Source: Planctopirus limnophila DSM 3776 (GTDB taxonomy: Bacteria > Planctomycetota > Planctomycetia > Planctomycetales > Planctomycetaceae). From it: a DNA stretch of 32,000 nucleotides. The translations under genes were made by a program, and so were the position numbers. Positions 3,980 to 31,934 of this stretch are shown here, piece by piece (position 1 is the first letter of the stretch; each line of letters opens with the position of its first letter). Below the pieces are notes generated by a model, which was not told where the DNA came from, searched no databases, and saw nothing but the letters and a program-made list of their open reading frames with translations. The stretch lies in contig NC_014149.1 in assembly GCF_000092105.1 (NCBI RefSeq), forward strand, positions 5,011 through 37,010. The letters are read 5' to 3'.

Positions 3980-3997
3980 TGATTTCTGCAGAAATCA
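3980..3997. repeat. Copy 1 of gapped palindrome TGATTTC-N4-GAAATCA (spacer TGCA), intergenic
   Basis: Read directly from the sequence. The flanking C/G extends the palindrome to 3979-3998. Confidence 0.95.
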
Positions 3998-4032
3998 GCC
4001 TGACCGATTCACCCTGTCTGAGGATTTCCGCA

Positions 4033-4338
4033 ATGCAGGAAGAACAACTTTTCAGCGTCAAGCTGACCAGCTCGCGAGCGGGCAACGGGGTCGCCCATGA
4101 AAAGGGAGACGTGATCGACGTTCCCCTGGCCCGGGCTCATCGCCTGATCACAGCTGGCCAGGCAAAGTATGTCGGCGAAGGGAAGCTGCCACCTTACACG
4201 CCGCCAGCCCCTGTTCACGTTCCAGGGCCTGCTGCTCCTGAGAACGATGAAGACGACAGCGATGCCGATGATGGCGGCGAAGAAATCGCCAATACCGAAG
4301 GCAAGTCGAAGCTGCGGTCGAGAAAGGCCGCAAAGTAA
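4033..4338 (+). CDS. Hypothetical protein (small, acidic and Lys-rich C-terminus) in the head module
   Basis: 101-aa ORF between the capsid and connector genes, co-oriented. No recognisable motif. Confidence 0.5.
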   Translation: MQEEQLFSVKLTSSRAGNGVAHEKGDVIDVPLARAHRLITAGQAKYVGEGKLPPYTPPAPVHVPGPAAPENDEDDSDADDGGEEIANTEGKSKLRSRKAAK

Positions 4339-4384
4339 TTGAAGGCCAAAACCCCAGAGTAAAGTTCGCGGGCGGCAATTCACC

Positions 4385-4972
4385 ATGAAGCATCATCTCA
4401 CCCACGGTCGCGTTGTTACGACAATTGCACCGGCAGACGAGCCGATCACACTGGCGGACCTCAAACGCCAGATCCGTGTCGATACGTCTGATGAGGATGA
4501 TCAGCTCACGGCCTATATCAAAGCCGCCCGCGAACTTCTGGAGGAACACACCGAGCGGGCTCTCGTCACGCAGACACGCCAGCTCTATCTCGATCGATTC
4601 CCCAGTTGCCAGACCATTGAGATCCCCTGCACGCCGGTGACCTCGATCGAGTCGATTGAATACATCGATCCCACTGGTCAGCTGCAGGAGCTCGATCCCT
4701 CCAGTTATGTGGCCGATCTTGTCTCCAGTCCGGCCCGCATTCGTCCAGCGTATGGACGTTTCTGGCCTGCGATCCGGTACCAGATGAACGCCGTGATTGT
4801 CACCTTCGAGGCAGGCCAGGATGTTGACGAGGTCCCAGAGCGAGCGAAGCAGGCGATCCGTCTGCTGGCTGGCCATTGGTACGCCAACCGCGAAACCGTC
4901 CTGATTGGCACGATCTCCAAAGAGGTCGAGTTTTCATTCAACGCTCTGGCTGGTCAGTTGAGGTGGCACTGA
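4385..4972 (+). CDS. Head-tail connector protein (gp6-like)
   Basis: 195 aa. The motif LADLKRQIRVDTSDEDDQLTAYIKAARELLEEHTERALVTQT is typical of gp6-like connector / DNA-packaging proteins. Its stop overlaps the next start (ATGA). Confidence 0.75.
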   Translation: MKHHLTHGRVVTTIAPADEPITLADLKRQIRVDTSDEDDQLTAYIKAARELLEEHTERALVTQTRQLYLDRFPSCQTIEIPCTPVTSIESIEYIDPTGQLQELDPSSYVADLVSSPARIRPAYGRFWPAIRYQMNAVIVTFEAGQDVDEVPERAKQAIRLLAGHWYANRETVLIGTISKEVEFSFNALAGQLRWH

Positions 4973-5307
4973 TGGCACCGGCTGGCAAGTATCGCGATCG
5001 AGTGCGCTTCGAGTCATTCACAGCGACCCCTGATGCCAGTGGTCAACTGGTGGAAACGTGGCAGACGCTGGGGACATTCTGGGCCGAGGTCAACGCAGTC
5101 TCAGGTTCGGAGTCATTCCGCGGCCGCAAGATTCAGGGGCGTGTCTCTCACCTCGTGAGAGTTCGCGTCAACTCACTCACGCGGCAGATTACTAATCGTC
5201 ACCGCATGATCATTCATGGCCAGATTGTCTCGATCGCTTCCGTCTACGATCCCAACAATCGAGGCATCGAGATCGAAGTTCAGGGCGAGGAGCTGCTTGA
5301 CTCATGA
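4972..5307 (+). CDS. Head closure / head-tail joining protein (SPP1 gp16-like)
   Basis: ATG at 4972 overlaps the upstream stop. The 111-aa product YRDRVRFES...DASGQLVETWQTLGTFWAEVNAVSGSE...HRMIIHGQIVSIASV fits the head-tail joining family pattern. Confidence 0.7.
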   Translation: MAPAGKYRDRVRFESFTATPDASGQLVETWQTLGTFWAEVNAVSGSESFRGRKIQGRVSHLVRVRVNSLTRQITNRHRMIIHGQIVSIASVYDPNNRGIEIEVQGEELLDS

Positions 5308-5939
5308 GTGCTGCTGCTGCCCTGGGTCGCCAGCTGCTGCTGGAATTGTCCGGCGATCGGCAGTTGTTGAAAACCTTCGATCGACTGAGCACCACTGCTC
5401 AAGCCAAGGCTGCCCGACGCGGTCTGGCGGCTGGGCTGAAGGTCGTGACCAAGGCCCAGAAGAATGCTGTGCCTTCCGTGAAAACCAAAGGCCATTCGAC
5501 CAAGCGGCTGAAGGCGGGGATTCGCGGCCGGCAGATGCGAGTCAAGAAGGCGAACCTGTACGAAGCCAAGTCGGGGGTGAACGTCGGCAAGCGCTCGAGG
5601 CGCAGCAAATACTCTCAGGCCAAAGGGAATCTCAGCCGGGCCCCTCACCTGCATCTCTTTGTGCTGGGGACCCAGCCGCGATTCACTGGATCGACCAGCC
5701 GCAAGGTTCGCGGTCAATCCACAGGCACTCGCAAGGATGGCACTGCCTTTGTTCGCGGGAAGCATAAGCCAGGCACGATCATCCGCAAGCAGACCGGCAA
5801 GCCGAAACGGTTTCGCGGCCGCATGCCTGGAAGCTCGTTTTTGAACTTTGCTCAGGCCACTTCACTCTCAGCCACTCAATCCGCCGTGATCGATGCCATG
5901 CGTCAGGCGATCCTCACCGAAGCGACGAAAGGGAAATGA
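5304..5939 (+). CDS. Tail-completion / neck protein, HK97 gp10-like (tentative)
   Basis: 211-aa basic protein in the syntenic position, with ATGA overlap to the upstream gene. The family assignment rests on position and weak N-terminal resemblance only. Confidence 0.55.
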   Translation: MSAAAALGRQLLLELSGDRQLLKTFDRLSTTAQAKAARRGLAAGLKVVTKAQKNAVPSVKTKGHSTKRLKAGIRGRQMRVKKANLYEAKSGVNVGKRSRRSKYSQAKGNLSRAPHLHLFVLGTQPRFTGSTSRKVRGQSTGTRKDGTAFVRGKHKPGTIIRKQTGKPKRFRGRMPGSSFLNFAQATSLSATQSAVIDAMRQAILTEATKGK

Positions 5940-5940
5940 G

Positions 5941-6369
5941 ATGTCGATCGAAGCCGCCATGCGTGGAGTGCTGGTCGCAGCGACTGGTGTCGCGAACATC
6001 GTCGCCACCAACAGCACCAGCAACGACAAAGCCATTCGCCCGGAACGTCTGGCTCAGACCGACTCTTATCCGGCCATCGAAATCCAGATCACTTCCGAGA
6101 CGCATCAGGAAGATCTGGGCGGGTGGGATGGCACGAGTGATGTGGAGGTCACGCTCTTCTGCGTGGCCGAGACAGCGCAACAAGCCGCCGCTCTTGTGAA
6201 GGCTGTTCGCCAGACTCTGACCTCGATCAGCAATGTCAGCAGTGTCCACGGTCGCATTGAGAGCGTGGTGCTGACAGACACTGAGGGAAGTTATGAGCCT
6301 GAGGCGGACGGCAGTGACGAAGGGGTTTATGTGAAAGCCCTGAGCTGCAGTGTCTGGTTCGTGGAGTGA
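5941..6369 (+). CDS. Tail terminator-like protein (DUF3168-like, tentative)
   Basis: ATG at 5941, 1 nt after the upstream stop. 142 aa in the position before the major tail protein. MSIEAAMRGVLVAATGV...YPAIEIQITSE... resembles gp11/DUF3168 proteins. Confidence 0.55.
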   Translation: MSIEAAMRGVLVAATGVANIVATNSTSNDKAIRPERLAQTDSYPAIEIQITSETHQEDLGGWDGTSDVEVTLFCVAETAQQAAALVKAVRQTLTSISNVSSVHGRIESVVLTDTEGSYEPEADGSDEGVYVKALSCSVWFVE

Positions 6370-6376
6370 GGTTTTC

Positions 6377-7641: not shown

Positions 7642-7980
7642 ATGTTCGCCATGCGGCTGGCTCTCGCCATGCGGCGGGTCGATGTCGACGCGATGCTGGA
7701 TGAGATGGAACCGGAAGATCTGCGGGAGTGGCAGGCCTTCGCTTCGATCGATCCTTTTGACGAGGAGCGTGCCGATCTGAGGAACGGAATTCTGATTGCG
7801 AATCTGGGGGCGATGCTGGCACCGTTCTGTGGCAGCCATCTGGCCGAGCTCAGGCCGGTGCAGTTCATGCCGTTCAGTCAGCAGTCAGATGTGATTTCCA
7901 CAGAAATCAGTGAGGAGCAGGAGCGGCTCAACTGGGCCAACCTGGAAGCGGCCGTGGCCATGATGTCCGACAGCAAGTGA
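7642..7980 (+). CDS. Tail assembly protein T-like domain (DUF4035-like), probably made as a G-T fusion (7205..7980) by -1 frameshift
   Basis: The ORF is in the -1 frame relative to 7205..7624. AMLDEMEPEDLREWQAFASIDPFDEERADLRNGILIANL resembles gpT / DUF4035 proteins. Confidence 0.7.
   Translation: MFAMRLALAMRRVDVDAMLDEMEPEDLREWQAFASIDPFDEERADLRNGILIANLGAMLAPFCGSHLAELRPVQFMPFSQQSDVISTEISEEQERLNWANLEAAVAMMSDSK
7892..7909. repeat. Copy 2 of TGATTTC-N4-GAAATCA (spacer CACA), inside the gpT-like ORF (encodes VISTEIS)
   Basis: Read directly from the sequence. Confidence 0.95.
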
Positions 7981-13120: not shown

Positions 13121-13642
13121 ATGCCTGGAGTGATCTATCTCGACAATGATCTCGATGTTGTCGTCAGGGGTTTGAGACTGGCCGAGGACAACTCGCCGAT
13201 CAATGACGCCGAGTTGTATGTGGCTCTCGGCCGCAAGCTGATTTCTGGAGAAATCACAGCAGCGACGAACGCCACACCGATCGTCATCACGAGCGCTGGC
13301 CACGGTCTCTCGAACGGTGACTCGGTGGTCATCATGAACGTGGAAGGGAACCTCGCAGCGAATGGTGGCTGGGAGGTTGCCAACGTCACGACGAACACCT
13401 TCGAGCTGGTCGGCTCTGTGGGGTCCGCCGCGTATGAGGCCAGCGGCGTCTGGTATGCCGGCGTCACTGATGCGATCCACATTCCGCTCGAGAGTGAACC
13501 CGGGGAAGCCGGTCATTACCGCGGCACGATCCCCGGGAGCGTCAACATCAATCGCGGTGAGATGCTCGTGGAGCTGATCTACTGCCGAAATTACCAACTG
13601 GGCTGGCAGCGCGAACTGCAGGGAAGGATCCGCACACGATGA
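13121..13642 (+). CDS. Hypothetical tail-module protein
   Basis: 173-aa ORF with AAGGTG upstream. ITSAGHGLSNGDSVVIMNVEGNLAANGGWEVANVTTNTFEL is a motif seen in several phage structural proteins. The exact family was not identified. Confidence 0.6.
   Translation: MPGVIYLDNDLDVVVRGLRLAEDNSPINDAELYVALGRKLISGEITAATNATPIVITSAGHGLSNGDSVVIMNVEGNLAANGGWEVANVTTNTFELVGSVGSAAYEASGVWYAGVTDAIHIPLESEPGEAGHYRGTIPGSVNINRGEMLVELIYCRNYQLGWQRELQGRIRTR
13239..13256. repeat. Copy 3 of TGATTTC-N4-GAAATCA (spacer TGGA), inside ORF 13121..13642 (encodes LISGEIT)
   Basis: Read directly from the sequence. The 18-mer is identical to copy 6. Confidence 0.95.
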
Positions 13643-15204: not shown

Positions 15205-16056
15205 GTGCTGCTGGCAGAAGCGATCGATCAATTCCTGAACCATGTTCTCGCGACGCGCAAGCCCGCGACCGAACGTCATTATCGGGAACGACTGCAAGGC
15301 CTCCGGAAGCTGCACGGTACCAGCTCGATCGACTCACTGACGACATCCTCGATCGAGCAGCATTTCGCTCAGGCCAATCACTGGCCGGACGGCAGGCCCA
15401 AGGCTCCCGATACCATCCGGGCCAACATCATTGCCTGGGAGCAGCTGCAGGCGTTTCTCCTGCAGGAGCAACTCATTCCGCAGGCGTTGACGGGGGCGAT
15501 CGCCAAGCCTTCTGGGCAGCTCAGGGAACGCCTTCCGACGAAGGATGAGATTGCCAGGATTCTGGCAGCCGCTGTCCCTGCCTTTGCTCTGATCTACCGG
15601 GCCTTGAGATTGTCCGGCTGCCGGCCAAGTGAGTTGGCCAAGGCGACCTTTGCCGACTGGGATCAACGTGAAGGAGTGATCAGCCTGGCTGACCACAAGA
15701 CCGCAACGAAGTCGAAACGACCCAGACGCATCGCAGTGGGCGACAAGCTGCTGGAGTATCTGCGATTGGCGATCGGTGACCGCACCGAGGGGCCGCTCTT
15801 CCTGACCAGCCAGGGCAAGCCCTGGACTTCCGCCCGGCTTTCGCAAGAGTTCCGCAGAACACGCGAGCGGGCCGGTCTCTCGAAGGATCTTGTGCTGTAT
15901 CTCACAAGACACGAACACGCCACCCAGTTGTGCGAGAAGCTCGATCTCAATGCGGCCGCCGAGGCCTTGGGTCATGCGTCGCTCAACACGACCCGACGTT
16001 ATCTCCACCTCTCAGCCAAGAAGCTGAAGGCCAATCAGGATCTCTTTGAGGAATGA
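15205..16056 (+). CDS. int: Tyrosine recombinase / integrase 1 (XerC/D-like size)
   Basis: 283 aa, GTG start with GGGAGG 6 nt upstream. Motifs: LRLSGCRPSEL (Arg I), LTRHEHATQL (His/Arg box), LGHASLNTTRRYLH (His-Tyr box). Confidence 0.85.
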   Translation: MLLAEAIDQFLNHVLATRKPATERHYRERLQGLRKLHGTSSIDSLTTSSIEQHFAQANHWPDGRPKAPDTIRANIIAWEQLQAFLLQEQLIPQALTGAIAKPSGQLRERLPTKDEIARILAAAVPAFALIYRALRLSGCRPSELAKATFADWDQREGVISLADHKTATKSKRPRRIAVGDKLLEYLRLAIGDRTEGPLFLTSQGKPWTSARLSQEFRRTRERAGLSKDLVLYLTRHEHATQLCEKLDLNAAAEALGHASLNTTRRYLHLSAKKLKANQDLFEE

Positions 16057-16366
16057 TGTCGTGAAGGATTTCCTTTTCTGTTGGCTGATGAGCTTCATTG
16101 TGGGTTTATTGTTTGTAGCCTTCTGGATCGGCTGTTGGCTGTGGGTGTGCGCGATGGATCGTTGGCCAGTTGAAGCAGGCACGATAACGGTCGCTGTCAT
16201 ACTGGTCGTTGTCTCTTTCCTCATTGCTCTGGCCGTACGAGATCGAGGCGATGAACAGCAGGAACATGAGGATCGCTTTTTGAATTACCAGCAGCTTTGT
16301 GAGCAGCGGAAACAAGAAGGCAAACCACTGCCCCTACCTCCGATGCTTGATCGGACCCAGTGGTGA
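16046..16366 (+). CDS. Small membrane protein (two predicted TM helices); function unknown
   Basis: The ORF has two hydrophobic stretches (FLFCWLMSFIVGLLFVAFWIGCWLWVCA and GTITVAVILVVVSFLIALAV) and a charged tail. The start is uncertain: TTG 16046, GTG 16061 or ATG 16088. Confidence 0.55.
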   Translation: MRNDVVKDFLFCWLMSFIVGLLFVAFWIGCWLWVCAMDRWPVEAGTITVAVILVVVSFLIALAVRDRGDEQQEHEDRFLNYQQLCEQRKQEGKPLPLPPMLDRTQW

Positions 16367-16373: not shown

Positions 16374-16391
16374 TGATTTCCTCAGAAATCA
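16374..16391. repeat. Copy 4 of TGATTTC-N4-GAAATCA (spacer CTCA), intergenic
   Basis: Read directly from the sequence, 7 nt after the stop of the membrane-protein ORF. The flanking C/G extends the palindrome to 16373-16392. Confidence 0.95.
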
Positions 16392-16408: not shown

Positions 16409-16440
16409 GGCCATGGGGATGCGTCAACACCCCCATGGCC
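16409..16440 (+). terminator. GC-rich hairpin (10-bp stem, 12-nt loop), possible terminator without a T-tract
   Basis: GGCCATGGGG (16409-16418) pairs with CCCCATGGCC (16431-16440). Confidence 0.35.
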
Positions 16441-18825: not shown

Positions 18826-19040
18826 CCCAGCTTTACCAAGCGGCATGCCGGCAGGTGATGATTCATCTGCACAAGGATGTCGTGCGCTCATGCAAATTTT
18901 GAGCTATAGATCAGTAGGAGTCAGCTCCTCGCGACTGATCGAGAAGTCACTCACTCAGCCCGTCACGGATGGTCTTTTGGAATCGAGCCGGGTCGCTCCC
19001 GGTGCGGGCATTCCCATGTCCCAGGAAGTCCACGGAAGCC

Positions 19041-20156
19041 ATGCAGAACCAATTCACACTCACACGTTCACGGCCCGAACAGGCCCAGCCTCCACGCATC
19101 TTCAAGCTGGTGATCGACGACGATCAAGTCAGCTATGGAGACGCCCCGTTGTCAATCCATTCCACTCTGCGGGAATGCTTCGAGAAGGCGGTCTTGCCGG
19201 AGATCGAGATTGCCGAATCGACCATCATCGAATACGAGGCGATGCTCAACCACTGGGAACGCATCATGCGAACCGTGGGAGTGGGCACGATCGACAAGGC
19301 CATGCTCAAGCAGTTTCGCGACCGGCTGGCCGCCGAACGCTGGACGCGATCGAAGCTGGCCAAAGCCACTGGAAAACCTCGATCGGCCGCCACAGTCAAC
19401 AAGGTTATGCGGCACCTGAAGGCTGTCGTCATGAAGCTCTTCCCGCCCGACCGGCACAACCCCGAGGGGCTCGGCCTGGTACCGCTCTGCAAGTTCCCCG
19501 GGCGACTGGAGGAGCCTGCGAAGCTGCCCTTCACTTACAGCCGATCAGCGATGTCTGCTCTCTATCGAAATGCTCATGCGGCCAAGCCCGAGAAGACCAC
19601 GCGATCGACGCCGCTCTATCGACCGGAGCTGTGGCAGCTGGCGATTGTGCTGGGCTTTGGCACTGGCCCGCGATCGTGGGACCTGCTCTCAATGACGTGG
19701 GATCGCATTGGCTGGGAGGATTTCAAGTATGGGTCGATCAGCTTCAAGGCTCAGAAGACAAAGAAGCTGCAACGCATCCCACTGAGTCAGGTCGCACGCC
19801 GGCATCTGGAAATGGTCCGCGACCTGCAGCTGCACGAGAGCGAGATCTTCCCCATGTTCCGCAAGACCAATCGCAGTGTCTATCGCTGCTGGCGACGGAT
19901 CTGCCTGGCTGCTGGACTGATCTCACCCGAGGGCCGCAATGCTCACTTCGAGGATTTGCGCAAGACCTGCTCGACAGCCTACGACGACATCTCGCCGGGA
20001 GTCGGTCCCTGGATTACGGGTCACGAGCTGCAGGGGGTCAACGCCAAGAATTACCAGAACCCCACGAAGCGCGTGTTGAAGGCAGTGAAGCAACTCAAAC
20101 AACCGCTGGCATTTCGCGAAGGAGCCGGGCTGCTGAAGCCAACCACGCCCGAATGA
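19041..20156 (+). CDS. int: Tyrosine recombinase / integrase 2 (with N-terminal SAM-like core-binding domain)
   Basis: Motifs: TIIEYEAMLNHWERIM...ATVNKVMRHLKAVVMKLF (N-terminal domain), GTGPRSWDLLSMTWDRI (Arg I), FEDLRKTC (box II-like), GHELQGVNAKNYQNP (His...Tyr). The start is uncertain: the longest ORF begins at 18969, and ATG 19041 is chosen here. Confidence 0.8.
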   Translation: MQNQFTLTRSRPEQAQPPRIFKLVIDDDQVSYGDAPLSIHSTLRECFEKAVLPEIEIAESTIIEYEAMLNHWERIMRTVGVGTIDKAMLKQFRDRLAAERWTRSKLAKATGKPRSAATVNKVMRHLKAVVMKLFPPDRHNPEGLGLVPLCKFPGRLEEPAKLPFTYSRSAMSALYRNAHAAKPEKTTRSTPLYRPELWQLAIVLGFGTGPRSWDLLSMTWDRIGWEDFKYGSISFKAQKTKKLQRIPLSQVARRHLEMVRDLQLHESEIFPMFRKTNRSVYRCWRRICLAAGLISPEGRNAHFEDLRKTCSTAYDDISPGVGPWITGHELQGVNAKNYQNPTKRVLKAVKQLKQPLAFREGAGLLKPTTPE

Positions 20157-20171
20157 TTTCTCTGGAAATCA
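20154..20171. repeat. Copy 5 of TGATTTC-N4-GAAATCA (spacer TCTG); its TGA is the integrase 2 stop codon
   Basis: Read directly from the sequence. Confidence 0.95.
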
Positions 20172-21393: not shown

Positions 21394-21603
21394 ATGCTAG
21401 TCCTCTCCCGCAGACCGCATGAATCCATCCGCTTGACGATCCCTGAGAATCTTCCTCCTGGCACAGTGATTGAGATCACGACATTGGAAGTCAGGGCCAA
21501 CGCCGTGAGGATTGGATTGACAGCACCTCGATCGGTGCAGATCGCCAGAAGCGAACTGGTTGACGAGTCAGGAGTCACCAGCAAGGAAGCTCCTGATGAG
21601 TAA
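21394..21603 (+). CDS. csrA: CsrA/RsmA-family RNA-binding translational regulator homologue
   Basis: ATG 21394 with GAAGGA 8 nt upstream. Compare MLVLSRRPHESIRLT...VIEITTLEVRANAVRIGLTAPRSVQIARSEL with E. coli CsrA [47 protein letters not shown]. There is an 8-aa insertion in the b2-b3 region. Confidence 0.8.
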   Translation: MLVLSRRPHESIRLTIPENLPPGTVIEITTLEVRANAVRIGLTAPRSVQIARSELVDESGVTSKEAPDE

Positions 21604-23684: not shown

Positions 23685-23929
23685 ACACGAGCCCTGAACT
23701 CAAGCCCCTCGTGACGTTCTACACCATATTCAACAGCCCTCTGGATTATCCAGGGGAGTTTGTCGTACGGCGATTCCATGTGATGCCTGGCGGCAAGCAG
23801 GCCGTGGACATGGATCTATGGGCAAGAGGCCCAACTCTTGAGAGCGTGATCGAACAGATCCCTGATGGACTCACCCGCATTGGTCGTCATGCGCTGGATG
23901 TGTTGTCTCTTGTGGAGACGTGGTCATGA
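23681..23929 (+). CDS. Hypothetical small protein
   Basis: ATG 23681 (ATGA overlap) with GAGGA 10 nt upstream. 82 aa. Confidence 0.55.
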   Translation: MNTSPELKPLVTFYTIFNSPLDYPGEFVVRRFHVMPGGKQAVDMDLWARGPTLESVIEQIPDGLTRIGRHALDVLSLVETWS

Positions 23930-24195
23930 AGCTCCTCTGCCGCATCTTTGGCTGCGAAATCCACAGACGCCATGACGGCTGCTGTGAGGAATGTGGGGCC
24001 CACATCTACGACGACGATTTCATTCAGCAGCCCTGCTGGTTGATCCGTACGTGGCGGATCTGGTGGCAATGGCTGAGATGCAAGCTGGTCGGCCACAAGT
24101 GCTGCCACTGTGGCAAACGCTACTGGGTGCCAGGGCCGGGCGGCGGCGAGCTGTTCTGCTCCCTCGAATGCGACCGCGAACATGTCCCCTTTTAA
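23926..24195 (+). CDS. Cys-rich small protein (MKLLCRIFGC... type)
   Basis: ATG 23926 overlaps the upstream stop. The N-terminal MKLLCRIFGCEIH motif is common in small prophage proteins. Ten Cys residues in 89 aa. Confidence 0.55.
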   Translation: MKLLCRIFGCEIHRRHDGCCEECGAHIYDDDFIQQPCWLIRTWRIWWQWLRCKLVGHKCCHCGKRYWVPGPGGGELFCSLECDREHVPF

Positions 24196-24205
24196 GGATC
24201 TCCCC

Positions 24206-24460
24206 ATGAAGACCAAGCGAAACCCGAAGAACCTCAGAGAGTGGCAAGAAGCGGCCGACGCCGCTGAGCTATTCCTGCAGATTGATTCCGCCAGATCTTA
24301 CGGCCTGATCACTGGCGGCCCGGCCGTCGATGTCGATCGCTGCGAGGAGCTGCTGAAGCTCGCCGCCCGCCGCAAGATTCGACCCAACAAAGATGCCCTC
24401 GGTCTCATCCTGCAGGGACTGAAGACCACAGGCGGCCAACTTGTGGAGAAGCCACGATGA
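24206..24460 (+). CDS. Hypothetical small protein
   Basis: ATG 24206 with AAGGA upstream. 84 aa. Confidence 0.5.
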   Translation: MKTKRNPKNLREWQEAADAAELFLQIDSARSYGLITGGPAVDVDRCEELLKLAARRKIRPNKDALGLILQGLKTTGGQLVEKPR

Positions 24461-24807
24461 GAAACATGTCGTTCATGCTCACGACTCAGCAGATCCTCGA
24501 TCGCAGCAAGACGGTCACACGTCGGCTGGGCTGGAAGTTCCTGAAGCCGGGCGAGCTCCTGCAGGCCTGCGAGAAGTGCCAAGGACTCAAGCCAGGCGAG
24601 CAGCTCCGCAAGCTGGCAGTGATCGAGGTGGTTTCGATCCGCACTGAGCCACTCAACGCGATCCGGGATGATGATGTTGCCCGGGAAGGATTCCCCGATC
24701 AGCACTGGCATCAGTTCGTGGACATGTTCTGCGAGGCCATGGCGTGCCGGCCAACGGATCCAGTCCAGCGGATCGAGTTCAAGTATGTGGACGAGGTGGC
24801 ACCATGA
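24457..24807 (+). CDS. ASCH (PUA-like) domain protein
   Basis: 116 aa. LTTQQILDRSKTVTRRLGWKFLKPGELL...VIEVVSIR fits the ASCH pattern (...KT.T.R...). ATGA overlaps on both sides. Confidence 0.65.
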   Translation: MRNMSFMLTTQQILDRSKTVTRRLGWKFLKPGELLQACEKCQGLKPGEQLRKLAVIEVVSIRTEPLNAIRDDDVAREGFPDQHWHQFVDMFCEAMACRPTDPVQRIEFKYVDEVAP

Positions 24808-25100
24808 AGAGTCACCCAACCAACGAAGCCCCTCAACTCTTTGAGGACGATACCGTCAGGCCGAAACCGGCCAGCCGCAAGCTGCCACCCTGCATCCCCT
24901 CGCCATCAGGCACAGGCCCAGCCGGTGAAACCTGCATGAGTTGCAGGCATCTCTGCAGAGTCAGGCACAACGATTACGTTTACCTCAAGTGCGGCCACAT
25001 GAAGCATTCGTGGAGTCGTGGAGCAGGTACCGACATCCGGGCCGGATGGGCAGCCTGCCGGCAGTGGGAGAAGAAAGATCGTCGGGAGGTGGCCCAATGA
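24804..25100 (+). CDS. Hypothetical Cys-containing small protein
   Basis: ATG 24804 (ATGA overlap). 98 aa. Contains CMSCRHLC...LKCGH. Confidence 0.5.
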   Translation: MKSHPTNEAPQLFEDDTVRPKPASRKLPPCIPSPSGTGPAGETCMSCRHLCRVRHNDYVYLKCGHMKHSWSRGAGTDIRAGWAACRQWEKKDRREVAQ

Positions 25101-25504
25101 GTACCTCAACCAAGAACCGCTGCACGTGCATTGAATGTGAGATCTCTTTTGGGATTCGACCGCCTGGCACAGTTTCACCAGTGACCTGTGAAGAGTGTAC
25201 AAGTCGATTAAAGCCCAGCCGCCTTTGTATGACCTGCCAGAGAATCATCGCAGTTGGTGAATGCTTTATCGATCATCCTCGTCTCGGTTCGCTTTGCTCA
25301 GTCTGTTGCGATAACTGGCTGAAACAGAAGGAAGACGATGCCTGGGATGAGTATTCAATGGCAGATGAAGAGGAAGAAAAACAGGGTCTCTACTCGTTCT
25401 GTAATTCACTCACGGAACTGCGGCTGGCGTTAAGGAGTTTAAAATGGGTTAGCGCTCAAGAAAACGATGCAGCAGCACAAGTCGGTCTGGAGGTGGCTGA
25501 ATGA
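25097..25504 (+). CDS. Cys-rich (multiple CxxC) protein with acidic C-terminal part
   Basis: ATG 25097 (ATGA overlap). 135 aa. Contains CTCIECE, CEEC, CMTCQ, CSVCC. Confidence 0.55.
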   Translation: MSTSTKNRCTCIECEISFGIRPPGTVSPVTCEECTSRLKPSRLCMTCQRIIAVGECFIDHPRLGSLCSVCCDNWLKQKEDDAWDEYSMADEEEEKQGLYSFCNSLTELRLALRSLKWVSAQENDAAAQVGLEVAE

Positions 25505-25902
25505 AGCACCTCACACTCAAGAACGCCACTGGCTTCAGTCGGGGCGGTCATTCCAAGACCTATCCTGCCGGCACGATCTGCATTGTCTATTCGGCGATTG
25601 ACCACAACCAGCACCTCGATCTCAAGTGGCTGGGCGATGAACTCAAAAAGGCTCGCAAGCTGAACGAAGGCAAGTCAGGCCCACCGGCTTATCTGGTCGT
25701 GATCGTCGAGGGTGAGTTCATCACTGTGCTGCCACGCGAGCAGATGGCCATCGCCGAATGCGATCAGCCAGAGCCAGCGATCCACCTGGCTGGCTTCCGC
25801 TCAGCCCCGATCACTCTGCAGCAATCGGAAGTTCTGCCGGCCGCCGCTCCCGACCCAGTGAAGCCTCCCAAGAAAGCCCCTCAACGGAGTCTCTTTGAAT
25901 GA
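25501..25902 (+). CDS. Hypothetical protein
   Basis: 133-aa ORF with ATGA overlaps on both sides. Confidence 0.55.
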   Translation: MKHLTLKNATGFSRGGHSKTYPAGTICIVYSAIDHNQHLDLKWLGDELKKARKLNEGKSGPPAYLVVIVEGEFITVLPREQMAIAECDQPEPAIHLAGFRSAPITLQQSEVLPAAAPDPVKPPKKAPQRSLFE

Positions 25903-26138
25903 GGCACCATAAGGTCAAGCCACTGGCCGGGCAGCTCTCGCTCCTGGGTGATCTGCCCGTGAAGTACTGCCCGGTCTGCGGTCGACGCCTGACGAGCGAT
26001 CGCAGCCACAAGGCTGGCATTGGCCCGCAATGCCGACGTCAGGCTCACATCGTCCGACGCCAAGACGCCATCAGTCAGTTGATTCATCGAATCGTTTTGA
26101 AGGTCAGGAAAGCCCCATGTCAAAGGTCATCGAAGTGA
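25899..26138 (+). CDS. DUF6011-like small zinc-ribbon protein
   Basis: CPVCGRRLTSDRSHKAGIGPQC matches the CxxCGRxLT...S...GIGPxC signature. Confidence 0.6.
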   Translation: MRHHKVKPLAGQLSLLGDLPVKYCPVCGRRLTSDRSHKAGIGPQCRRQAHIVRRQDAISQLIHRIVLKVRKAPCQRSSK

Positions 26139-26476
26139 AACAGGCCAAGCCGACGAAAGAAGATTATGAGTGTTTTCTGGAGTTCATGTACGGTCTTGAG
26201 CGCATGCTCGAGCATCGCGTTCACCCCGATCGCAACAAGGATGAGGAAATCGATATCAATTGGATCGATGAGAATTTGCGATACTGGATCGAAAGACAGT
26301 GGGACAATCGCAGTAAGCCTCTGGATGTTTCTTTGGTCTGGCAGCGAGTGTTTTATGCCGGCCAATGTGCCGTCGAAAACTCATGCGACCCCTCGAAGAA
26401 AGTCCTCGAATGGCGTCCTGAAATCCAGCGGGCTCTCGACTTCTACGAGGCCCACGGTCCAAAGGTAATCAAGTGA
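26117..26476 (+). CDS. Hypothetical protein
   Basis: ATG 26117 with AGGAAAG upstream. 119 aa. Confidence 0.55.
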   Translation: MSKVIEVKQAKPTKEDYECFLEFMYGLERMLEHRVHPDRNKDEEIDINWIDENLRYWIERQWDNRSKPLDVSLVWQRVFYAGQCAVENSCDPSKKVLEWRPEIQRALDFYEAHGPKVIK

Positions 26477-28467
26477 TTGAATCACTATCTGACCTGCGGC
26501 CGCTCTTTGAGCAGCCCGGCGAGGAGGGCGACTGGTGGCGTGCGATCATGCCCTACATCGCCAGCCAGGTCAGCGGCTGGAGTTCCGCTTGGATGACCAA
26601 GACAGAGGAAGAGCTGCTCAACCCGACTTATGTCGCCGCCCTGGCTCTCGGTTCCATCAACGACCGCACGAAAGGCCTTCACTTTGAACACGGTCACTCA
26701 TGGGTGACATCGGAAGTCAACCACGCTCTGCGAAATCTCGAATCAATGTGTTCCCCAACCCCTGAAGAGGAAGAGTTTTTTATGGCCACGAAAACGAAAC
26801 CAGCACCTGCCAAGCCCACCAAAGCCACGAAGCCAGCGAAGCCGAAAGAAACCGCTCCTGAGGTCACATCAGAGTCATCGCAGGAGCATCCCGGCAAGGC
26901 CTTCATCGTCGATCGCAGTCGTGACATCCCACTCTCTCAGCTCGATCCCAGCCCCTGGCAGGTCCGCAAGAAGACCAGCAGCGAGTGGATTGCCGAGTTA
27001 GGCCAATCGCTCTTGGATGATGGCCAACTGGCACCGCTGTTGGTCAGGCTGAGCAAGATAATTAATCAAGGATCGCTGGCGAATCGCTACGAAATCATTG
27101 CTGGTCATACGCGAGCCTTCGCGGCTGGTCAGGTCGGCCTCAAATCTCTGAGGTGTGACATCCTCGAATGCGATGACGAAACCGCTCAGCGGCTCGTGTT
27201 GATCGATAACGCGAAGCGGAAAGACCTCACGAAGATTGAGCAGGCCCAGGCACTGAAGGCACTGGTCGAAACGTACGAGGCGGCCGGGAAGAGTCAGCGG
27301 CAACTGGCCGCCGACATCGGGATCAGCCAGGGACAGATCAGCAATCTGACCCGGCTGCTGCTCCTGCCGCCCGAGGTGCAGGAGCTGGTGATTTCTGGAG
27401 AAATCACTCAGGCGTCCGCCCGCGAAGCAGTGCCGATGCTGCAGCATCCAAAGATTGCCAAAGCATTTGTCGCGGAGATTGCTGACATTCGAGATGTGGC
27501 CGTGGAGGAGGCGGAACGTCAGGGCGAGGAGGCCAGGATTGACCTGATGAACTCCATCCGTTCGGTCGTTCGTGAGATTGGTCAACCTCTTGATGGTCAA
27601 ATCTACTACAAGGGTCGCTGGGTGAACCGGGCCTTTAAGCTGACGCCTGAGATTGAGGAGCAGCTCGACATTGTTGATCTGTCGAGCAACCCGAAGGACC
27701 CTCGACGATATGCACTCAACAAAAAACTCTTTGAGGAGCTGCAGGACAAGGCAGAAGCCAAGAAGAAGGCGGATGAGCAGAAAGGGATCGAGGGGAAGTG
27801 CTCAGGCAAGAAGCAGCTGACGCCGGCACAGCAGAAGGAAAAGGACAAGCAGCAGGCTGAACAGCTCGCAGCGAGAATCGCGAAGTGGAAGATCAGGATC
27901 CAGAAGGACATGGTCTGCGATTGGATTGATACCACTGCGAGCGAGCGGGAGATGGTCAGCGTGCTGGGATGGCTCTGGCTGCACTGGCAGCACCACAGCG
28001 AGAAAAGGGTGATCAGCGAGAGCCTGCGTGAGGCTTTGCAAGAATCTGGCATGAAGGACTTCAACCCTGATGAACGTGAGCTCGTTAAAGCCCTGCTGAA
28101 GGCGGATCAACCAAAGGATGATTTGGTTTTTCCCCAGGTGCTCCGAAGCATGGGCCTCAAGATTCTTCGGCGATGTGAGGTCGCTCCATTTCGAATTGCG
28201 GATCCTGAGATCATTCAGATCATTTTCGATTATGCCAGACTCAACATTGAGACGGTCTGGGCCTCGGCCTACGGTGAGGACGTCGAGGAGTTTTTCGGGA
28301 TGCATTCAACGGCTCAACTGACGGCCCTGGCGAAGGAGCTCAAGATCTCCGTCAGCAGCCCCAAGAAGATCGACATGATCGACGATCTCCTGCAGCACTG
28401 CTGGGGTAAGCCCTGCCCGAAATCGATCATTGATGCCAAGGCGGCAGACGCCAGCGGGAAGTGGTGA
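26473..28467 (+). CDS. ParB/Srx-fold N-terminal domain plus HTH protein (ParB/KorB-like), with long N- and C-terminal extensions
   Basis: 664 aa. IPLSQLDPSPWQVRK, GQLAPLLVR, YEIIAGHTRAFAA (the GxxRxxA box) and SQRQLAADIGISQGQISNLTRLL (HTH). It has a Lys/Pro-rich linker KTKPAPAKPTKATKPAKPKE. The start is GTG 26473, and the N-terminal 140 aa could conceivably be a separate domain. Confidence 0.8.
   Translation: MIESLSDLRPLFEQPGEEGDWWRAIMPYIASQVSGWSSAWMTKTEEELLNPTYVAALALGSINDRTKGLHFEHGHSWVTSEVNHALRNLESMCSPTPEEEEFFMATKTKPAPAKPTKATKPAKPKETAPEVTSESSQEHPGKAFIVDRSRDIPLSQLDPSPWQVRKKTSSEWIAELGQSLLDDGQLAPLLVRLSKIINQGSLANRYEIIAGHTRAFAAGQVGLKSLRCDILECDDETAQRLVLIDNAKRKDLTKIEQAQALKALVETYEAAGKSQRQLAADIGISQGQISNLTRLLLLPPEVQELVISGEITQASAREAVPMLQHPKIAKAFVAEIADIRDVAVEEAERQGEEARIDLMNSIRSVVREIGQPLDGQIYYKGRWVNRAFKLTPEIEEQLDIVDLSSNPKDPRRYALNKKLFEELQDKAEAKKKADEQKGIEGKCSGKKQLTPAQQKEKDKQQAEQLAARIAKWKIRIQKDMVCDWIDTTASEREMVSVLGWLWLHWQHHSEKRVISESLREALQESGMKDFNPDERELVKALLKADQPKDDLVFPQVLRSMGLKILRRCEVAPFRIADPEIIQIIFDYARLNIETVWASAYGEDVEEFFGMHSTAQLTALAKELKISVSSPKKIDMIDDLLQHCWGKPCPKSIIDAKAADASGKW
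27389..27406. repeat. Copy 6 of TGATTTC-N4-GAAATCA (spacer TGGA), inside the ParB-like gene (encodes VISGEIT)
   Basis: Read directly from the sequence. The 18-mer is identical to copy 3. Confidence 0.95.
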
Positions 28468-28794: not shown

Positions 28795-28799
28795 AACCC

Positions 28800-29122: not shown

Positions 29123-29136
29123 TTGCCAGACCAGCG

Positions 29137-29166
29137 GGCGGGGGACATTCACCCCGCCTTTTTTGT
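29137..29166 (+). terminator. Rho-independent terminator
   Basis: GGCGGGG pairs with CCCCGCC (29152-29158), followed by TTTTTTG. Confidence 0.7.
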
Positions 29167-29190
29167 CTCACGTCCTCACTGGAATCGATT

Positions 29191-29802
29191 ATGCAAAACG
29201 CCTGCGAATTTCTCGCTGATGTCGGCTATGAGTTTCTGCTCTCTCGCTGTGAGCAGGGCCGGATTGTCCAAGATTTGATTGACGCGAAGGTCACCCCCTG
29301 GCCCAATCGATCCGGCTGCAAGTGGATCATCCCGATCACATGGCCAGACCGCGTGCCTGGGCTGGTCACATGGACGGGCCAAATGACACTGCCAAAAATC
29401 ATCAATGGGATGATTGATGCGCTGAAAAAAGCCAAGGATGTCGAGGACATCCGGGCATTCCAAGCCCCTATGACTGGGGCCACTGGCTTCGATTTGCGGA
29501 CAGCGATTGAGCCGCTGGACGCCGGATTCTCATTGGACAAACTGGGCATGCCCATCATGCGGCGAGTCGGCTTGGAGCTGCTGGGGATCATCGGACTGCA
29601 GACCTTGCCGCTGGTATCCCTCGGTGGCCGCAAGGCGGGTGTGATCTATCGAGGCAAGATGTATCAATTCCCTGTGTTGCCTCGCTCTGGCGGGTATTAC
29701 CACAAATGGGGGAACGTCACCGAGATGGAGATCGAGGAGTACATTCCTCCCGGGCTGATTGACGAGGACGAAATCGAGCCAGTTGCCGAAAGTGTCGGCT
29801 GA
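29191..29802 (+). CDS. Hypothetical protein (203 aa), stand-alone cassette
   Basis: The ORF lies between a terminator and a long stem structure. No family recognised. The C-terminus is acidic. Confidence 0.6.
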   Translation: MQNACEFLADVGYEFLLSRCEQGRIVQDLIDAKVTPWPNRSGCKWIIPITWPDRVPGLVTWTGQMTLPKIINGMIDALKKAKDVEDIRAFQAPMTGATGFDLRTAIEPLDAGFSLDKLGMPIMRRVGLELLGIIGLQTLPLVSLGGRKAGVIYRGKMYQFPVLPRSGGYYHKWGNVTEMEIEEYIPPGLIDEDEIEPVAESVG

Positions 29803-29805
29803 CAG

Positions 29806-29915
29806 ATTCCCACCACCAAACACCTTGCTCCCGCGAGGCCGCGTCTGAGGTCTCTTGTTGAGACTGAGGGCAAGGCTTGTCGGAGCTGGCCTCGCGGGCG
29901 GGTGTTTGTGGGAAT
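29806..29915 (+). other. Long imperfect stem-loop (about 26 bp paired in three helices, 47-nt apical region)
   Basis: Pairings: 29806-29813 with 29908-29915 (8 bp), 29818-29824 with 29901-29907 (7 bp), 29830-29840 with 29888-29898 (11 bp). The apical region holds a small hairpin GTCTC-TTGTT-GAGAC. Confidence 0.7.
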
Positions 29916-29932
29916 GAATGAGGGAGCAGGCC

Positions 29933-30370
29933 ATGCCGCGAAAACGGATCCCCCTGGAGCCTCGGGCCTGTGAGTATTGCGGGACGGTCTACATGCCGGA
30001 TCGCGTCACCGCTCGCTGGTGTCAATCAGGATGCTATGCCCGCTGGCTCATCGAGACCCGCAAGGCAGAGCGGGCTGCACGTCGCATCGTCTATGAGATG
30101 GTCTGCCCGATCTGTGACATTAAATTCCAGACCAGTCATCACGCGAAAAAATTCTGCTCAGAAAAGTGCCAGGCCCGCGACTCGTCACAACGGCAGATCC
30201 AGAGGCTGAAGATTGATCGGGAGACAGCCAGACGCTACCGGAGGGCACACATCGAGAGGCTGCGATCCACGCCCGAAGGCCGGGCGAAGATCAAGCGATG
30301 GAACGACCAGAAAAACGCCCGCGTCTCAGCAGAGCGACGCCAACGACGCCTTGATCGCGATAAGGAATGA
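29933..30370 (+). CDS. Basic protein with two C-x2-C...(W/F)C-x(2,3)-C zinc-ribbon motifs and an Arg-rich coiled tail
   Basis: ATG 29933 with AGGGAG upstream (alternative ATG 29918). Contains CEYCG...WCQSGC and CPICD...FCSEKC. Confidence 0.6.
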   Translation: MPRKRIPLEPRACEYCGTVYMPDRVTARWCQSGCYARWLIETRKAERAARRIVYEMVCPICDIKFQTSHHAKKFCSEKCQARDSSQRQIQRLKIDRETARRYRRAHIERLRSTPEGRAKIKRWNDQKNARVSAERRQRRLDRDKE

Positions 30371-30373
30371 AGC

Positions 30374-30649
30374 ATGCCCGCAAAACGCTCGATCACACTC
30401 CCCGATGAAATTGATGCCAAGGCCCGGAAAATGGCCTCAGAACGCGAATTGAGCTTGTCCGGGCTGATTTGCTCGCTGATCGTCGCTGAAGAGGGACGCA
30501 AACGGGCAGGCAGGCCCAAGGCTGAGCTGCCAGTTGATGAGATCGTGGCTCAGCGGCAGGCGGGCAAGACCCTCCAGTCGCTCGCTGATGCTTACGGAGT
30601 CAACGTCGGCACCATTCACCGGCTGATTGCTCGGCAAGCCAGTCTCTAA
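30374..30649 (+). CDS. Transcriptional regulator: N-terminal ribbon-helix-helix plus C-terminal HTH
   Basis: AAGGA 7 nt upstream. RSITLPDEIDAKARKMASERELSLSGLICSLI is CopG/Arc-like. GKTLQSLADAYGVNVGTIHRLI is a resolvase-type HTH. Confidence 0.7.
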   Translation: MPAKRSITLPDEIDAKARKMASERELSLSGLICSLIVAEEGRKRAGRPKAELPVDEIVAQRQAGKTLQSLADAYGVNVGTIHRLIARQASL

Positions 30650-30819
30650 TGCCGGTCCTCAATCTCCTGCAGGCCACGTTCGATCAGTTCGAGGGCCAGG
30701 CTGCGGATCGATGGGGTGCGGCCGGATTGCTTTCGCTGATCAGCGATCAGCTGCAGACGCCTTGAGAGTTGGGCTGTCGTCGGCACTCGGAGAAACTTTT
30801 GGCCGCTGCGTTCTGCCAT
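30646..30819 (-). CDS. Small ribbon-helix-helix protein (57 aa, below the ORF-track cutoff)
   Basis: Minus-strand ATG at 30819-30817 with AAGGA 9 nt upstream. Translation MAERSGQKFLRVPTTAQLSRRLQLIADQRKQSGRTPSIRSLALELIERGLQEIEDRH. Its stop TAG (30648-30646) overlaps the stop of the convergent gene 30374..30649. Confidence 0.6.
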   Translation of the reverse strand: MAERSGQKFLRVPTTAQLSRRLQLIADQRKQSGRTPSIRSLALELIERGLQEIEDRH

Positions 30820-30947
30820 TGTCTTTTGTCCTTGACGAGTGGGAGGTGCCGACTTCCAATCGGCCTTCGTCCAAGGATGGACTGTTGTCGCTCTGGGGAG
30901 AGCCGCGATCGTCGGGTGTCAGGATGATGCCCGGCGATCATTTTACT

Positions 30948-31223
30948 TCAGCCCAGGGAAACTTCCACAGGCTCTTCAGCCTGCAGGTGAGTTCGGGCAA
31001 TCAATCGACCGCGACGCAAGAGGCGACTGACTCGACCTCGATGGGTCTTGAGCACTCTTGCGATCTGGTCGAGGCTCAGGTTGCCGAGCAGCCTCAACAT
31101 CAAGGCTGAGATGGCTCGAATGTTGTGCGGTGAATCACGGTTCACCGAGATCAGATAGGTCCACAGATCGTGGTTGGGCCGGTCGAGATCGACCTTGGCC
31201 CCTCGCTTGTCTCTGACTGACAT
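30948..31223 (-). CDS. Small HTH DNA-binding protein (sigma-70 region-4-like HTH)
   Basis: 91 aa. LGNLSLDQIARVLKTHRGRVSRLLRRGR. It is transcribed divergently from the Gam-like operon. Confidence 0.6.
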   Translation of the reverse strand: MSVRDKRGAKVDLDRPNHDLWTYLISVNRDSPHNIRAISALMLRLLGNLSLDQIARVLKTHRGRVSRLLRRGRLIARTHLQAEEPVEVSLG

Positions 31224-31319
31224 ACGCCTCCATTGCGCAACAGCGACGGTTTGGGTGCAGACAACGGGCCAGTGCCCATTCTCTTTTCGTCCAACCGGAT
31301 CTTGTTGCGCGAGGTGTTT

Positions 31320-31934
31320 ATGTCATCCGACGATGTTTTGCCGATCGATCCCGTGATTTCTGATGAAATCGAGCTCCGACAGGCCCTCAAGGAGCTGCAG
31401 CAGCTCGACGTGGCCATGCGGAAGCGAGCGGCCTCGCTCGACCGCGAAGTGCGGGCGATCTATGAGCGGGCAGGCCAGCACCTGGTCAACGTGTTGGGTC
31501 AATCGATCCCGGCTGATGTGCGGGCCAAGTCACTGCAGGAAGCGATCATCAACTTCGCCAATGACTATCGCGAAGAACTGCTCAAGGGCCGCGACAAAAA
31601 GTCGATCGAATATCCCGAAGGGACCCTCGCCTGGCGAACTGTGCCCGCGACGATCGCGGCCAGTGAAGGGGTCAAGCCAGACGACATCATTGAGCGGGCC
31701 GACAAGGTCGCACCCTGGACGATCATCGTCAGGAAGGTGCTGGAGAAAGTGAAGCTCTTTGGCGTTGGTTTCTTCGAGATGTTCGACGTCGTTTACAAGC
31801 CCTCGATGGCCAACATCAAGAAAGCCTGGCAGGCCAAGCGGCTGAAGCCAGCCGACCTGAAGAAGCTGGGTTTGGAAGTTGTGCCGGAACGCGAATCGGC
31901 TTTCTTCAAGCTGCCCGAAGTCTCGCTGGATTAA
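31320..31934 (+). CDS. gam: Mu Gam-like host-nuclease inhibitor protein
   Basis: ATG 31320 with GAGG 5 nt upstream. 204 aa. An N-terminal coiled coil (EIELRQALKELQQLDVAMRKRAASLDREVRAIYERA) is followed by ANDYREELLKGRDKKSIEYPEGTLAWRTVP, the pattern of the Mu Gam family. Confidence 0.7.
   Translation: MSSDDVLPIDPVISDEIELRQALKELQQLDVAMRKRAASLDREVRAIYERAGQHLVNVLGQSIPADVRAKSLQEAIINFANDYREELLKGRDKKSIEYPEGTLAWRTVPATIAASEGVKPDDIIERADKVAPWTIIVRKVLEKVKLFGVGFFEMFDVVYKPSMANIKKAWQAKRLKPADLKKLGLEVVPERESAFFKLPEVSLD
31354..31371. repeat. Near copy (13/14) of TGATTTC-N4-GAAATCA: TGATTTC-TGAT-GAAATCG, inside the Gam-like gene (encodes VISDEIE)
   Basis: Read directly from the sequence. Confidence 0.85.

Follow-up and report, generated by a model that had tools for sequence, protein, structure and literature searches.

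The stretch of DNA considered here, hereafter the window, comprises 32 kb of the circular 37,010-bp replicon pPLIM01, a plasmid of Planctopirus limnophila. The remaining 5,010 bp lie in one of the numbered loci (L###) of this analysis, such that the whole element is made up of window positions 1-32000 and L121:2414-7423. The replicon encodes a complete HK97-type head-tail module (the terminase subunits TerS and TerL, portal, ClpP-type protease, HK97 capsid, tail and tape measure), together with two tyrosine recombinases/integrases, a D12 methyltransferase, CsrA, Gam and an HNH endonuclease. Because a full temperate siphovirus-like gene set is present, pPLIM01 is a phage-plasmid with a complete genome of that type; a plasmidome preprint handles it as an isolated plasmid. 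Both arms, the structural and the early one, which a preliminary description of this DNA had taken to be parts of one genome, do lie on the same 37,010-bp replicon. Scattered over the element are eight copies of an 18-bp palindrome, TGATTTC-N4-GAAATCA, with two 7-bp arms, and this palindrome is probably the binding site of the long ParB/Noc-family protein encoded by Plim_4296 (Table 1).

Distribution and conservation of the palindrome

A pattern search of the window returned exactly seven sites, six of them perfect and one matching at 13 of the 14 arm positions, with nothing further at up to two mismatches. These are the seven sites of the preliminary description, and none of 100 dinucleotide-preserving shuffles reached seven matches (mean 0.2). 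Extending the pattern search to the full element, as had been proposed there, added an eighth, perfect copy. The motif set of pPLIM01 is all-or-none, because seven of the ten TGATTTC heptamers of the window sit in the palindrome and every TTTC-N4-GAAA of the whole element is a full copy; forms with two mismatches are absent, and nothing beyond the 18-mer is common to the copies. Gaps between the eight sites range from 3,135 to 7,235 bp, and the sites are spaced more evenly than chance, the probability being 4.4e-4 for a minimum gap at least as large and 0.0017 for a coefficient of variation at least as small. pPLIM01 has no other repeated palindrome, and no conserved partner motif was found within 120 bp of the sites.

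The gene contexts first assigned to the copies proved correct, including the positions of copy 1 after a terminator and of copy 4 after a stop codon, and the overlap of copy 5 with the end of the integrase 2 (Int2) gene, whose stop codon is the TGA of that copy. Copy 4 lies upstream of a 44-aa open reading frame (ORF) and of the D12 methyltransferase gene. As had also been noticed, the four coding copies in the window share a single frame, xTG ATT TCN NNN GAA ATC, which reads V/L-I-S-x-E-I.

Table 1. Copies of the palindrome on pPLIM01, and genes referred to in the text (window positions unless a locus is given)
Feature	Position	Strand	Spacer	Context
Copy 1	3980..3997		TGCA	Intergenic, 22 nt after the GC-rich terminator of the capsid gene (3932-3957)
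Copy 2	7892..7909		CACA	In the tail-assembly gpT-like ORF 7642-7980, read V-I-S-T-E-I
Copy 3	13239..13256		TGGA	In ORF 13121-13642, read L-I-S-G-E-I
Copy 4	16374..16391		CTCA	7 nt beyond the end of ORF 16046-16366; a GC-rich hairpin (16409-16440) follows after 18 nt
Copy 5	20154..20171		TCTG	TGA is the stop codon of integrase 2 (18969-20156)
Copy 6	27389..27406		TGGA	In the ParB-like gene, encoding V-I-S-G-E-I-T of the helix-turn-helix region
Copy 7	31354..31371		TGAT	13/14 copy, TGATTTC-TGAT-GAAATCG (last A replaced by G), in the Gam-like gene
Copy 8	L121:5033-5050 (outside the window)		TCCA	Perfect; TGA is the stop codon of a 135-aa gene
Long ParB/Noc-family protein gene (Plim_4296)	26473..28467	+		ORF of 664 aa (624 aa in the annotation); candidate for binding the motif
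CsrA homolog	21394-21603	+		Also in most related elements, motif-less ones included
89-aa ORF (WP_013112526.1)	23926-24195	+		Placed here from accession order as the essential plasmid gene

Relatives were sought with the narrower spacer classes TSSA and SSSS; a scan of viral contigs with the full pattern gave mostly chance singletons among the matches listed. For the spacer subset TGATTTCTSSAGAAATCA, with one genome per species, 105 stretches were found against about 35 expected (our estimate, for a uniform base composition), with a clear excess in Planctomycetaceae. One of the elements reached is JAIXUU010000094, a 38,083-bp contig of a Planctomyces sp. metagenome-assembled genome (MAG) that is about 85% identical to pPLIM01 and colinear with it, at 78-90% nucleotide identity over the aligned blocks, and that holds all four spacer-subset matches of its MAG. 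The six comparable sites are all syntenic, and identity across them is 84 of 84 positions in the arms, the odd terminal G of copy 7 included, versus 19 of 24 in the spacers and 417 of 540 in the flanks, bearing out the earlier suggestion that the arms would be conserved in relatives while the spacers drift. For instance, the counterpart of copy 1 is preserved despite insertions and deletions in its flanks, that of copy 2 has the spacer CGCA, and that of copy 7 keeps the terminal G next to a different spacer.

Three viral contigs of 36-38 kb, V2588, V2783 and V2881 (IMGVR_UViG_2881272144_000001), are more distant, with 25-50% protein identity to pPLIM01 in a few genes, perfect arms and unrelated spacers. 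There are five copies in the 36.5 kb of V2588, about nine to ten in V2783 and at least four in 19 kb of V2881, and the distant elements of about 36-38 kb carry roughly one copy per 3-8 kb. Over the 38 copies compared, the arms are invariant except for a terminal A-to-G change in two syntenic copies, compensatory changes are absent, and the position flanking each arm is occupied by G or C in 28-32 of the 38. In about one third of the copies the TGA is the stop codon of a called gene, as is the case in V2881 (L069:239), where it likewise ends the Int2 gene, and copies inside called genes read in the I-S-x-E-I frame. The site within the ParB-like gene, to which the preliminary description had drawn attention, recurs with its V-I-S-G-E-I-T codons in homologs of about 25-45% identity (L234:1847, L102:179 and L278:2576), one ParB-like homolog with the intragenic copy lying in DNA of 66% G+C. 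A further recurrent position is 1-21 nt upstream of the start of the Xer-like integrase Int1, in V2588, V2783, L290 and L140/L147. Because the arms are kept while spacers and flanks drift, the motif is under strong purifying selection on its arms at the level of the DNA word.

A putative ParB/Noc-type site and its candidate protein

The consensus sequences of the Noc-binding site (NBS), TATTTCCC-GGGAAATA, and of parS, TGTTTCAC-GTGAAACA, differ at half-site positions 1 and 6 (PMC7383237). Written as TG-ATTTC-N4-GAAAT-CA, the motif of pPLIM01 has the half-site A1-T2-T3-T4-C5 and the dyad distance of NBS, with positions 6 and 7 free, and its TTTC-N4-GAAA core is the canonical parS core, whereas the outer TG/CA are conserved bases additional to those of NBS. 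All eight copies have the parS/NBS pattern, namely TTTC at half-site positions 2-5 and 4 bp between the C and the G. The spacers are free, as the seven different tetranucleotides of Table 1 illustrate, and the central CCCGGG of NBS is not present as a conserved feature. The motif falls outside the class of the KorB operators (OB), being unlike OB, TTTAGCSGCTAAA, in sequence, and neither a KorA/IncC partner nor a partner motif beside the sites was found. On these grounds the motif is probably a ParB/Noc-family site of the parS/NBS type, and the earlier remark that it was not recognised as a known parS, operator or terminator family has to be revised, as it shares its arms and spacing with the Noc-binding site and its core with parS.

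The protein proposed to bind it, the product of Plim_4296, contains the Pfam domains ParB_N (PF02195) and HTH_ParB (PF17762) between family-specific N- and C-terminal regions, and matches PHROG 4715, labelled 'ParB-like partition protein', over its full length. A sequence search of the PDB gave Caulobacter ParB as the best match (E=7.5e-24), then Spo0J, Noc (1.5e-17) and, weakly, KorB (8e-4). The AlphaFold model is confident for residues of about 145-335 only, the N- and C-terminal regions being uninformative. When aligned to Caulobacter ParB and numbered accordingly, the protein retains the DNA-contacting residues Q162, G170, S172, N178 and R204, and has at position 173 a Gln, the Noc-type residue, and at position 201 an Ala in place of the Arg of the reference; Ala, Thr or Ser is found at 201 across the ParB-like family. 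Gln173 is reported to read adenine 1, and Arg201 cytosine 6 (PMC7383237). Given Gln at 173 and Ala at 201, the recognition helix of Plim_4296 would be expected to prefer adenine 1 and a free centre. Among the residues aligned with the cytidine triphosphate (CTP) pocket, G211 and R214 (of GxxR), R165, R249, D251 and L252 are invariant in the family, and N246 is retained in some but not all members.

Full-length homologs of Plim_4296 were not found among deposited phages or plasmids, nor did megablast of the window against phage and plasmid collections, single-sequence searches of viral contigs with the capsid and ParB-like proteins, or a metagenome scan with the ParB-like alignment return a match. 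The same two proteins are also encoded on circular-looking contigs of 37,018-37,040 bp from several sequencing runs. A word-indexed protein search gave five to six ParB-like relatives, and the integrase family served to reach genomic contexts. Both the motif and the long ParB-like protein occur in pPLIM01, JAIXUU010000094, V2588, V2783 and the L284-286 group, these being the five motif-bearing lineages whose early region was visible. In the L284-286 group the motif has the form YGATTTC-N4-GAAATCG, the ending ...GAAATCG being the norm there. In the case of L281, a 38-kb phage with a different terminase and portal/structural module, a full-length ParB-like homolog (26% identity over 613 residues) has the recognition helix QRADSVRNIVRLL, versus SQG-QISNLTRLL in pPLIM01; the TGATTTC motif is absent, and four dispersed ATTTCT-N2-AGAAAT sites occur in 21 kb of DNA of 62% G+C. 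Neither TTTC-N4-GAAA nor a ParB-like gene is present in the 6-21 kb seen of L287-289, L283, L295 and L291-294. The motif-less phages and prophages have the same Xer-like integrase family, and some also have tail, CsrA and helix-turn-helix (HTH) genes; the 10-kb host flanks in Schlesneria genomes are likewise without TTTC-N4-GAAA. Judged from these comparisons, the presence of the motif tracks the ParB-like family across lineages rather than the host or the integrase, and its variation follows the recognition helix of the element's own ParB-like protein.

As a separate observation, L281 contains a second dispersed perfect palindrome, TGCATCGTACGATGCA, with three copies at 498, 12946 and 18768, two of which lie 39-50 bp upstream of ATTTCT-N2-AGAAAT sites, an arrangement that recalls paired KorA/KorB operators.

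Proposed function and rival explanations

The favoured reading of the palindrome, in the extended form (G)TGATTTC-N4-GAAATCA(C), is that it probably serves as a dispersed parS/NBS-like binding or loading site for the element's own long ParB/Noc-family protein. In the preliminary description a dimeric protein had been suggested to bind here, the ParB/KorB-like protein being named first among the candidates, and the sequence comparisons support that choice. Binding, CTP use and downstream function of the protein are what we infer. A dimer would read the two ATTTC half-sites through its HTH, leaving the central 4 bp uncontacted, and, with eight sites 3-7 kb apart, would nucleate all round the 37-kb phage-plasmid. 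Should the protein act as a CTP-dependent clamp, as ParB, Noc and KorB do, spreading from each site might mark or organise the whole episome, and such marking would serve the positioning or inheritance of the plasmid prophage. A less likely role would be KorB-like damping of transcription, for instance at the integrase gene, which in several relatives comes immediately after a site. The sites would have been fitted cheaply into a gene-dense genome, either in the I-S-x-E-I frame or with the TGA as the stop codon of a gene.

A transposon-insertion sequencing (TraDIS) study scored a single plasmid gene as essential (PMC10632474). By accession order this gene is probably the 89-aa ORF of Table 1, which has no Pfam or PHROG match and could encode a repressor, an antitoxin or a replication factor. 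Because it is the only essential plasmid gene, the ParB-like protein does not seem to be the sole barrier to a lethal lytic programme, which speaks against a role as master repressor. The TraDIS result is compatible with a protein that positions or organises the episome or ensures its inheritance, or with one that dampens particular genes, for instance the integrase, in an auxiliary, KorB-like manner. A wider proposal is tentative and, in our estimate, more doubtful than the assignment of the site: in temperate phages and phage-plasmids of Planctomycetaceae, a ParA-less ParB/Noc protein of about 530-860 aa may load at sites set every few kilobases, within coding sequence in a constant frame or as stop codons, and thereby coat the whole episome, a genome-wide self-marking with a purpose other than classical partition. 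If so, the protein might tether or position the episome within the compartmentalised planctomycete cell, silence the entire genome or protect it against host defences, and Noc-like specificity would have arisen independently outside Firmicutes.

A number of observations weigh against assigning the palindrome to the ParB-like protein. No ParA-type family, whether Walker or actin-type, was found among the submitted ORFs (Pfam, PHROGs) or in the precomputed Pfam calls, and the data thus lend no support to ParABS partition of the classical type; many early ORFs of pPLIM01 have no family match at all, and a novel ParA-like partner is conceivable. The GERR box reads GHTR in the ParB-like family, such that CTP binding is not assured. 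The even spacing of pPLIM01 is absent in V2588 and V2783, and the copy within the ParB-like gene may be a by-product, given that the peptide V-I-S-G-E-I-T fits the frame of the motif. Several of the control elements were viewed in part, as 6-21 kb of about 38 kb, and L235/L236 encode a short ParB with Q173, yet lack the motif. Perfect copies also occur in chromosomal contigs of Schlesneria and other Planctomycetaceae with no ParB-like gene in view, and four of these loci (L156, L173, L163 and L195) have ordinary-looking neighbourhoods with lipopolysaccharide-type genes, leuA or DUF1559.

Such chromosomal copies are also what might be expected if the reader were a host-encoded Planctomycetaceae factor, for instance a chromosomal ParB/Noc paralogue or a nucleoid protein, that phage-plasmids exploit, and for an element without ParA the use of host machinery is conceivable. 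We nevertheless consider this improbable: related prophages of the same host genus and their 10-kb flanks are copy-free (L283, L295 and the host part of L290), the matches of the JAIXUU010000094 MAG are confined to its one 38-kb element, six ordinary 8-kb chromosomal blocks have no further copy, and the variants of the motif follow the recognition helix of the element's own ParB-like protein. It is likewise unlikely that the palindrome is the operator of another regulator encoded by the element, be it one of the HTH or ribbon-helix-helix (RHH) proteins encoded at 30.4-31.2 kb or else the essential 89-aa protein, in an arrangement reminiscent of the L5 stoperators or of the scattered C1 operators of P1. 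Small HTH/RHH proteins, put forward as candidates at the outset, are indeed encoded on pPLIM01, a single essential plasmid gene is the expected look of prophage-repressor loss, and in four lineages a site stands, operator-like, directly upstream of an integrase gene. However, these proteins are detectable in the closest relative only, whereas the motif is identical at 25-45% protein identity (a weak point, as small proteins diverge fast); the majority of sites are in genes or at gene ends rather than at promoters, the half-site is specifically of the ParB/Noc type, and a second conserved motif flanking the sites was not found.

The proximity of copies to integrase genes, at the Int2 stop in pPLIM01 and V2881, 1-21 nt before Int1, or 11 nt after the stop in L212, could also be accounted for by an att- or dif-like core site of the tyrosine recombinases (the Xer-like Int1, or Int2). 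This is very unlikely, given that the same integrase family is found in several lineages with no motif nearby, that a replicon with eight to ten such recombination sites, of which two share a spacer, would be prone to deletions and inversions, and that the copy of L290 is internal to the integrated prophage and not at the host junction. In addition, overlap regions of tyrosine recombinases are 6-8 bp long, and the 4-bp centre is too short. We give just as little credence to the motif acting as RNA, that is, as a 7-bp hairpin with a tetraloop, whether for RNA processing, for termination or for recognition by an RNA-binding protein, of which the phage CsrA homolog is an example. In its favour, almost every gene is encoded on the same strand, such that each copy would be transcribed as the same hairpin, a U-G pair is preserved in the 13/14 copy, several copies lie at gene ends, and some loops contain GGA. 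The hairpin alternative of the preliminary description has nonetheless weakened, the stems being A+U-rich with energies of -6 to -13 kcal/mol (38-nt context) and z-scores mostly above -2.5; a U-tract is absent, the motif is never called as a terminator, and the true terminators beside copies 1 and 4 are separate GC-rich hairpins (Table 1). Moreover, arms that are constant over 38 copies, bar the terminal A-to-G of two, with no covariation point to sequence-specific readout rather than structure. CsrA itself was rejected as a reader of the motif, as phage L287 encodes it and lacks the motif. The D12 methyltransferase was dismissed too, because it is absent from the seen parts of V2783 and the L284 group, and also because over-representation of a palindrome is not predicted for a methylase site.

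The closest known systems are Noc-NBS, KorB-OB and the inverted-repeat (IR) sites of N15. The palindrome shares with the sites of Noc, the ParB-family CTPase of Bacillus subtilis nucleoid occlusion, an identical half-site and geometry (ATTTC-N4-GAAAT versus the NBS core ATTTCCCGGGAAAT), as well as the scattering of many sites over a replicon in place of one grouped centromere, and the proteins share ParB_N and HTH_ParB, the Gln at the adenine-1 position and the lack of a dedicated ParA partner. Unlike in NBS, the central CCGG is not conserved, which fits Ala rather than Arg at 201, and the outer TG/CA are. The setting is a 37-kb planctomycete phage-plasmid and not a firmicute chromosome, and the protein is of about 660 aa with unrelated N- and C-terminal regions. 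As in the KorB-OB system of the IncP plasmid RK2, a ParB-family protein is paired with identical palindromes dispersed on a mobile replicon, 12 on the roughly 60 kb of RK2 versus 8 per 37 kb, and sites before particular genes, the integrase in relatives of pPLIM01, could act as operators. From the 12 OB operators of RK2, KorB exerts its effect at a distance, as a sliding clamp that depends on CTP (PMC11790492). Its operator, however, is TTTAGCGGCTAAA, the sequence relation between the proteins is weak (E=8e-4), and on pPLIM01 no IncC/ParA, KorA-like partner or partner site was detected and the sites are mostly in genes or at gene ends.

N15, too, is a temperate phage maintained in plasmid form; it encodes a ParB-family protein, SopB, and has four IR sites, single palindromes with a variable central dinucleotide (GTGCGACC-NN-GGTCGCAC) that are scattered across its genome with no tandem centromere. 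It differs in having a cognate SopA ATPase, the like of which was not found here, in the sequence of its sites, and in their number (four versus eight to ten). With chromosomal ParB-parS, pPLIM01 has in common the TTTC-N4-GAAA core in a palindrome of 16-18 bp, the best PDB matches (Caulobacter ParB, Spo0J) and a site inside the parB-like gene itself, B. subtilis having a parS site within spo0J. In contrast to parS, position 1 is A and not G, the central ACGT is not conserved, no ParA was found, and the sites are spread over the replicon and not clustered near an origin.

What sets pPLIM01 apart from these systems is the sequence of the site, the architecture of the protein, the host phylum, sites written into coding sequence, and that no ParA or KorA partner was found. 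The literature searched makes no mention of the motif of pPLIM01. CTP switches of the ParB family (ParB, Noc, KorB) are an active field; we know of few natural variants with known sites, and of none from phages of Planctomycetes, bacteria with an unusual cell organisation that divide by budding rather than by FtsZ-based fission. The present case offers a ready candidate cognate pair, a defined 18-bp site and a 664-aa protein, in a genetically tractable host, and with it natural specificity variants (TGATTTC...GAAATCA, YGATTTC...GAAATCG and ATTTCT-NN-AGAAAT), each with its own recognition helix. It could help to decide if Noc-type recognition, with Gln173 reading adenine 1, had an independent origin and what role a ParB clamp has when no ParA is present, and it offers an example of a protein-binding word woven into coding sequence.

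Copies outside the elements and further observations

The motif is highly enriched on the elements, not exclusive to them. Some of the outside copies lie in prophage material: L140/L147 have the order motif-integrase-D12 methyltransferase exactly as in phage V2588, and from this equal arrangement are therefore a prophage end or remnant, and L290 is a prophage end in which the copy lies away from the host junction. L181 and L212 are defence-type or mobile regions. One MAG has five TSSA-type matches on four contigs, some of them in apparently ordinary genes. With regard to the generic genomic repeat considered in the preliminary description, the motif is not strictly confined to pPLIM01 (Schlesneria chromosomes have a few copies, at least some of which sit in prophage remnants), and the host flanks of relatives are copy-free. 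Judged indirectly from the relatives, a generic host repeat of the repetitive extragenic palindrome (REP) or uptake-sequence type seems to fit poorly, since neither those flanks nor the six chromosomal blocks have copies beyond the ascertained one in each block.

In the Schlesneria MAG cassettes at L147:47-7998 and L140:2338-4294, the motif, the Xer-like integrase gene and the D12 methyltransferase gene adjoin brxA, brxB and brxC, with BrxABC in L147. The palindrome is there extended to CCATG...CATGG and overlaps the integrase start codon. On pPLIM01 itself, cumulative GC skew has its minimum just upstream of the ParB-like gene (window positions of about 24000-27000) and its maximum near 9-10 kb, a course that represents a possible origin/terminus-like polarity.

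Two sets of look-alikes were set aside. About 30 viral contigs of IMG/VR sample 3300045988 have a single, undispersed site, TGATTTCCCG(C/G)GAAATCA, upstream of terS, and were judged one independent coincidence amplified by relatedness. The contigs of this family (L027, L043, L056, L085, L240 and about 25 further loci) are of about 26-60 kb and 46-50% G+C; their site includes the whole Noc NBS core, and a P27-type small terminase gene follows it after about 60-100 nt. Six matches from Desulfovibrio MAGs of termite guts are part of another dispersed repeat, longer than the motif, that ends in cTGATTTCTGCAGAAATCAg (L145, L157, L206, L213 and L223), the 18-mer being the same throughout; a conserved GC-rich hairpin-like segment precedes the repeat in three of these five loci. 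Finally, the tail region of the L290 prophage (L290:1399-1545) contains four palindromes of the form CACTGGC-N3-GCCAGTG, starting at 1399, 1439, 1488 and 1528.

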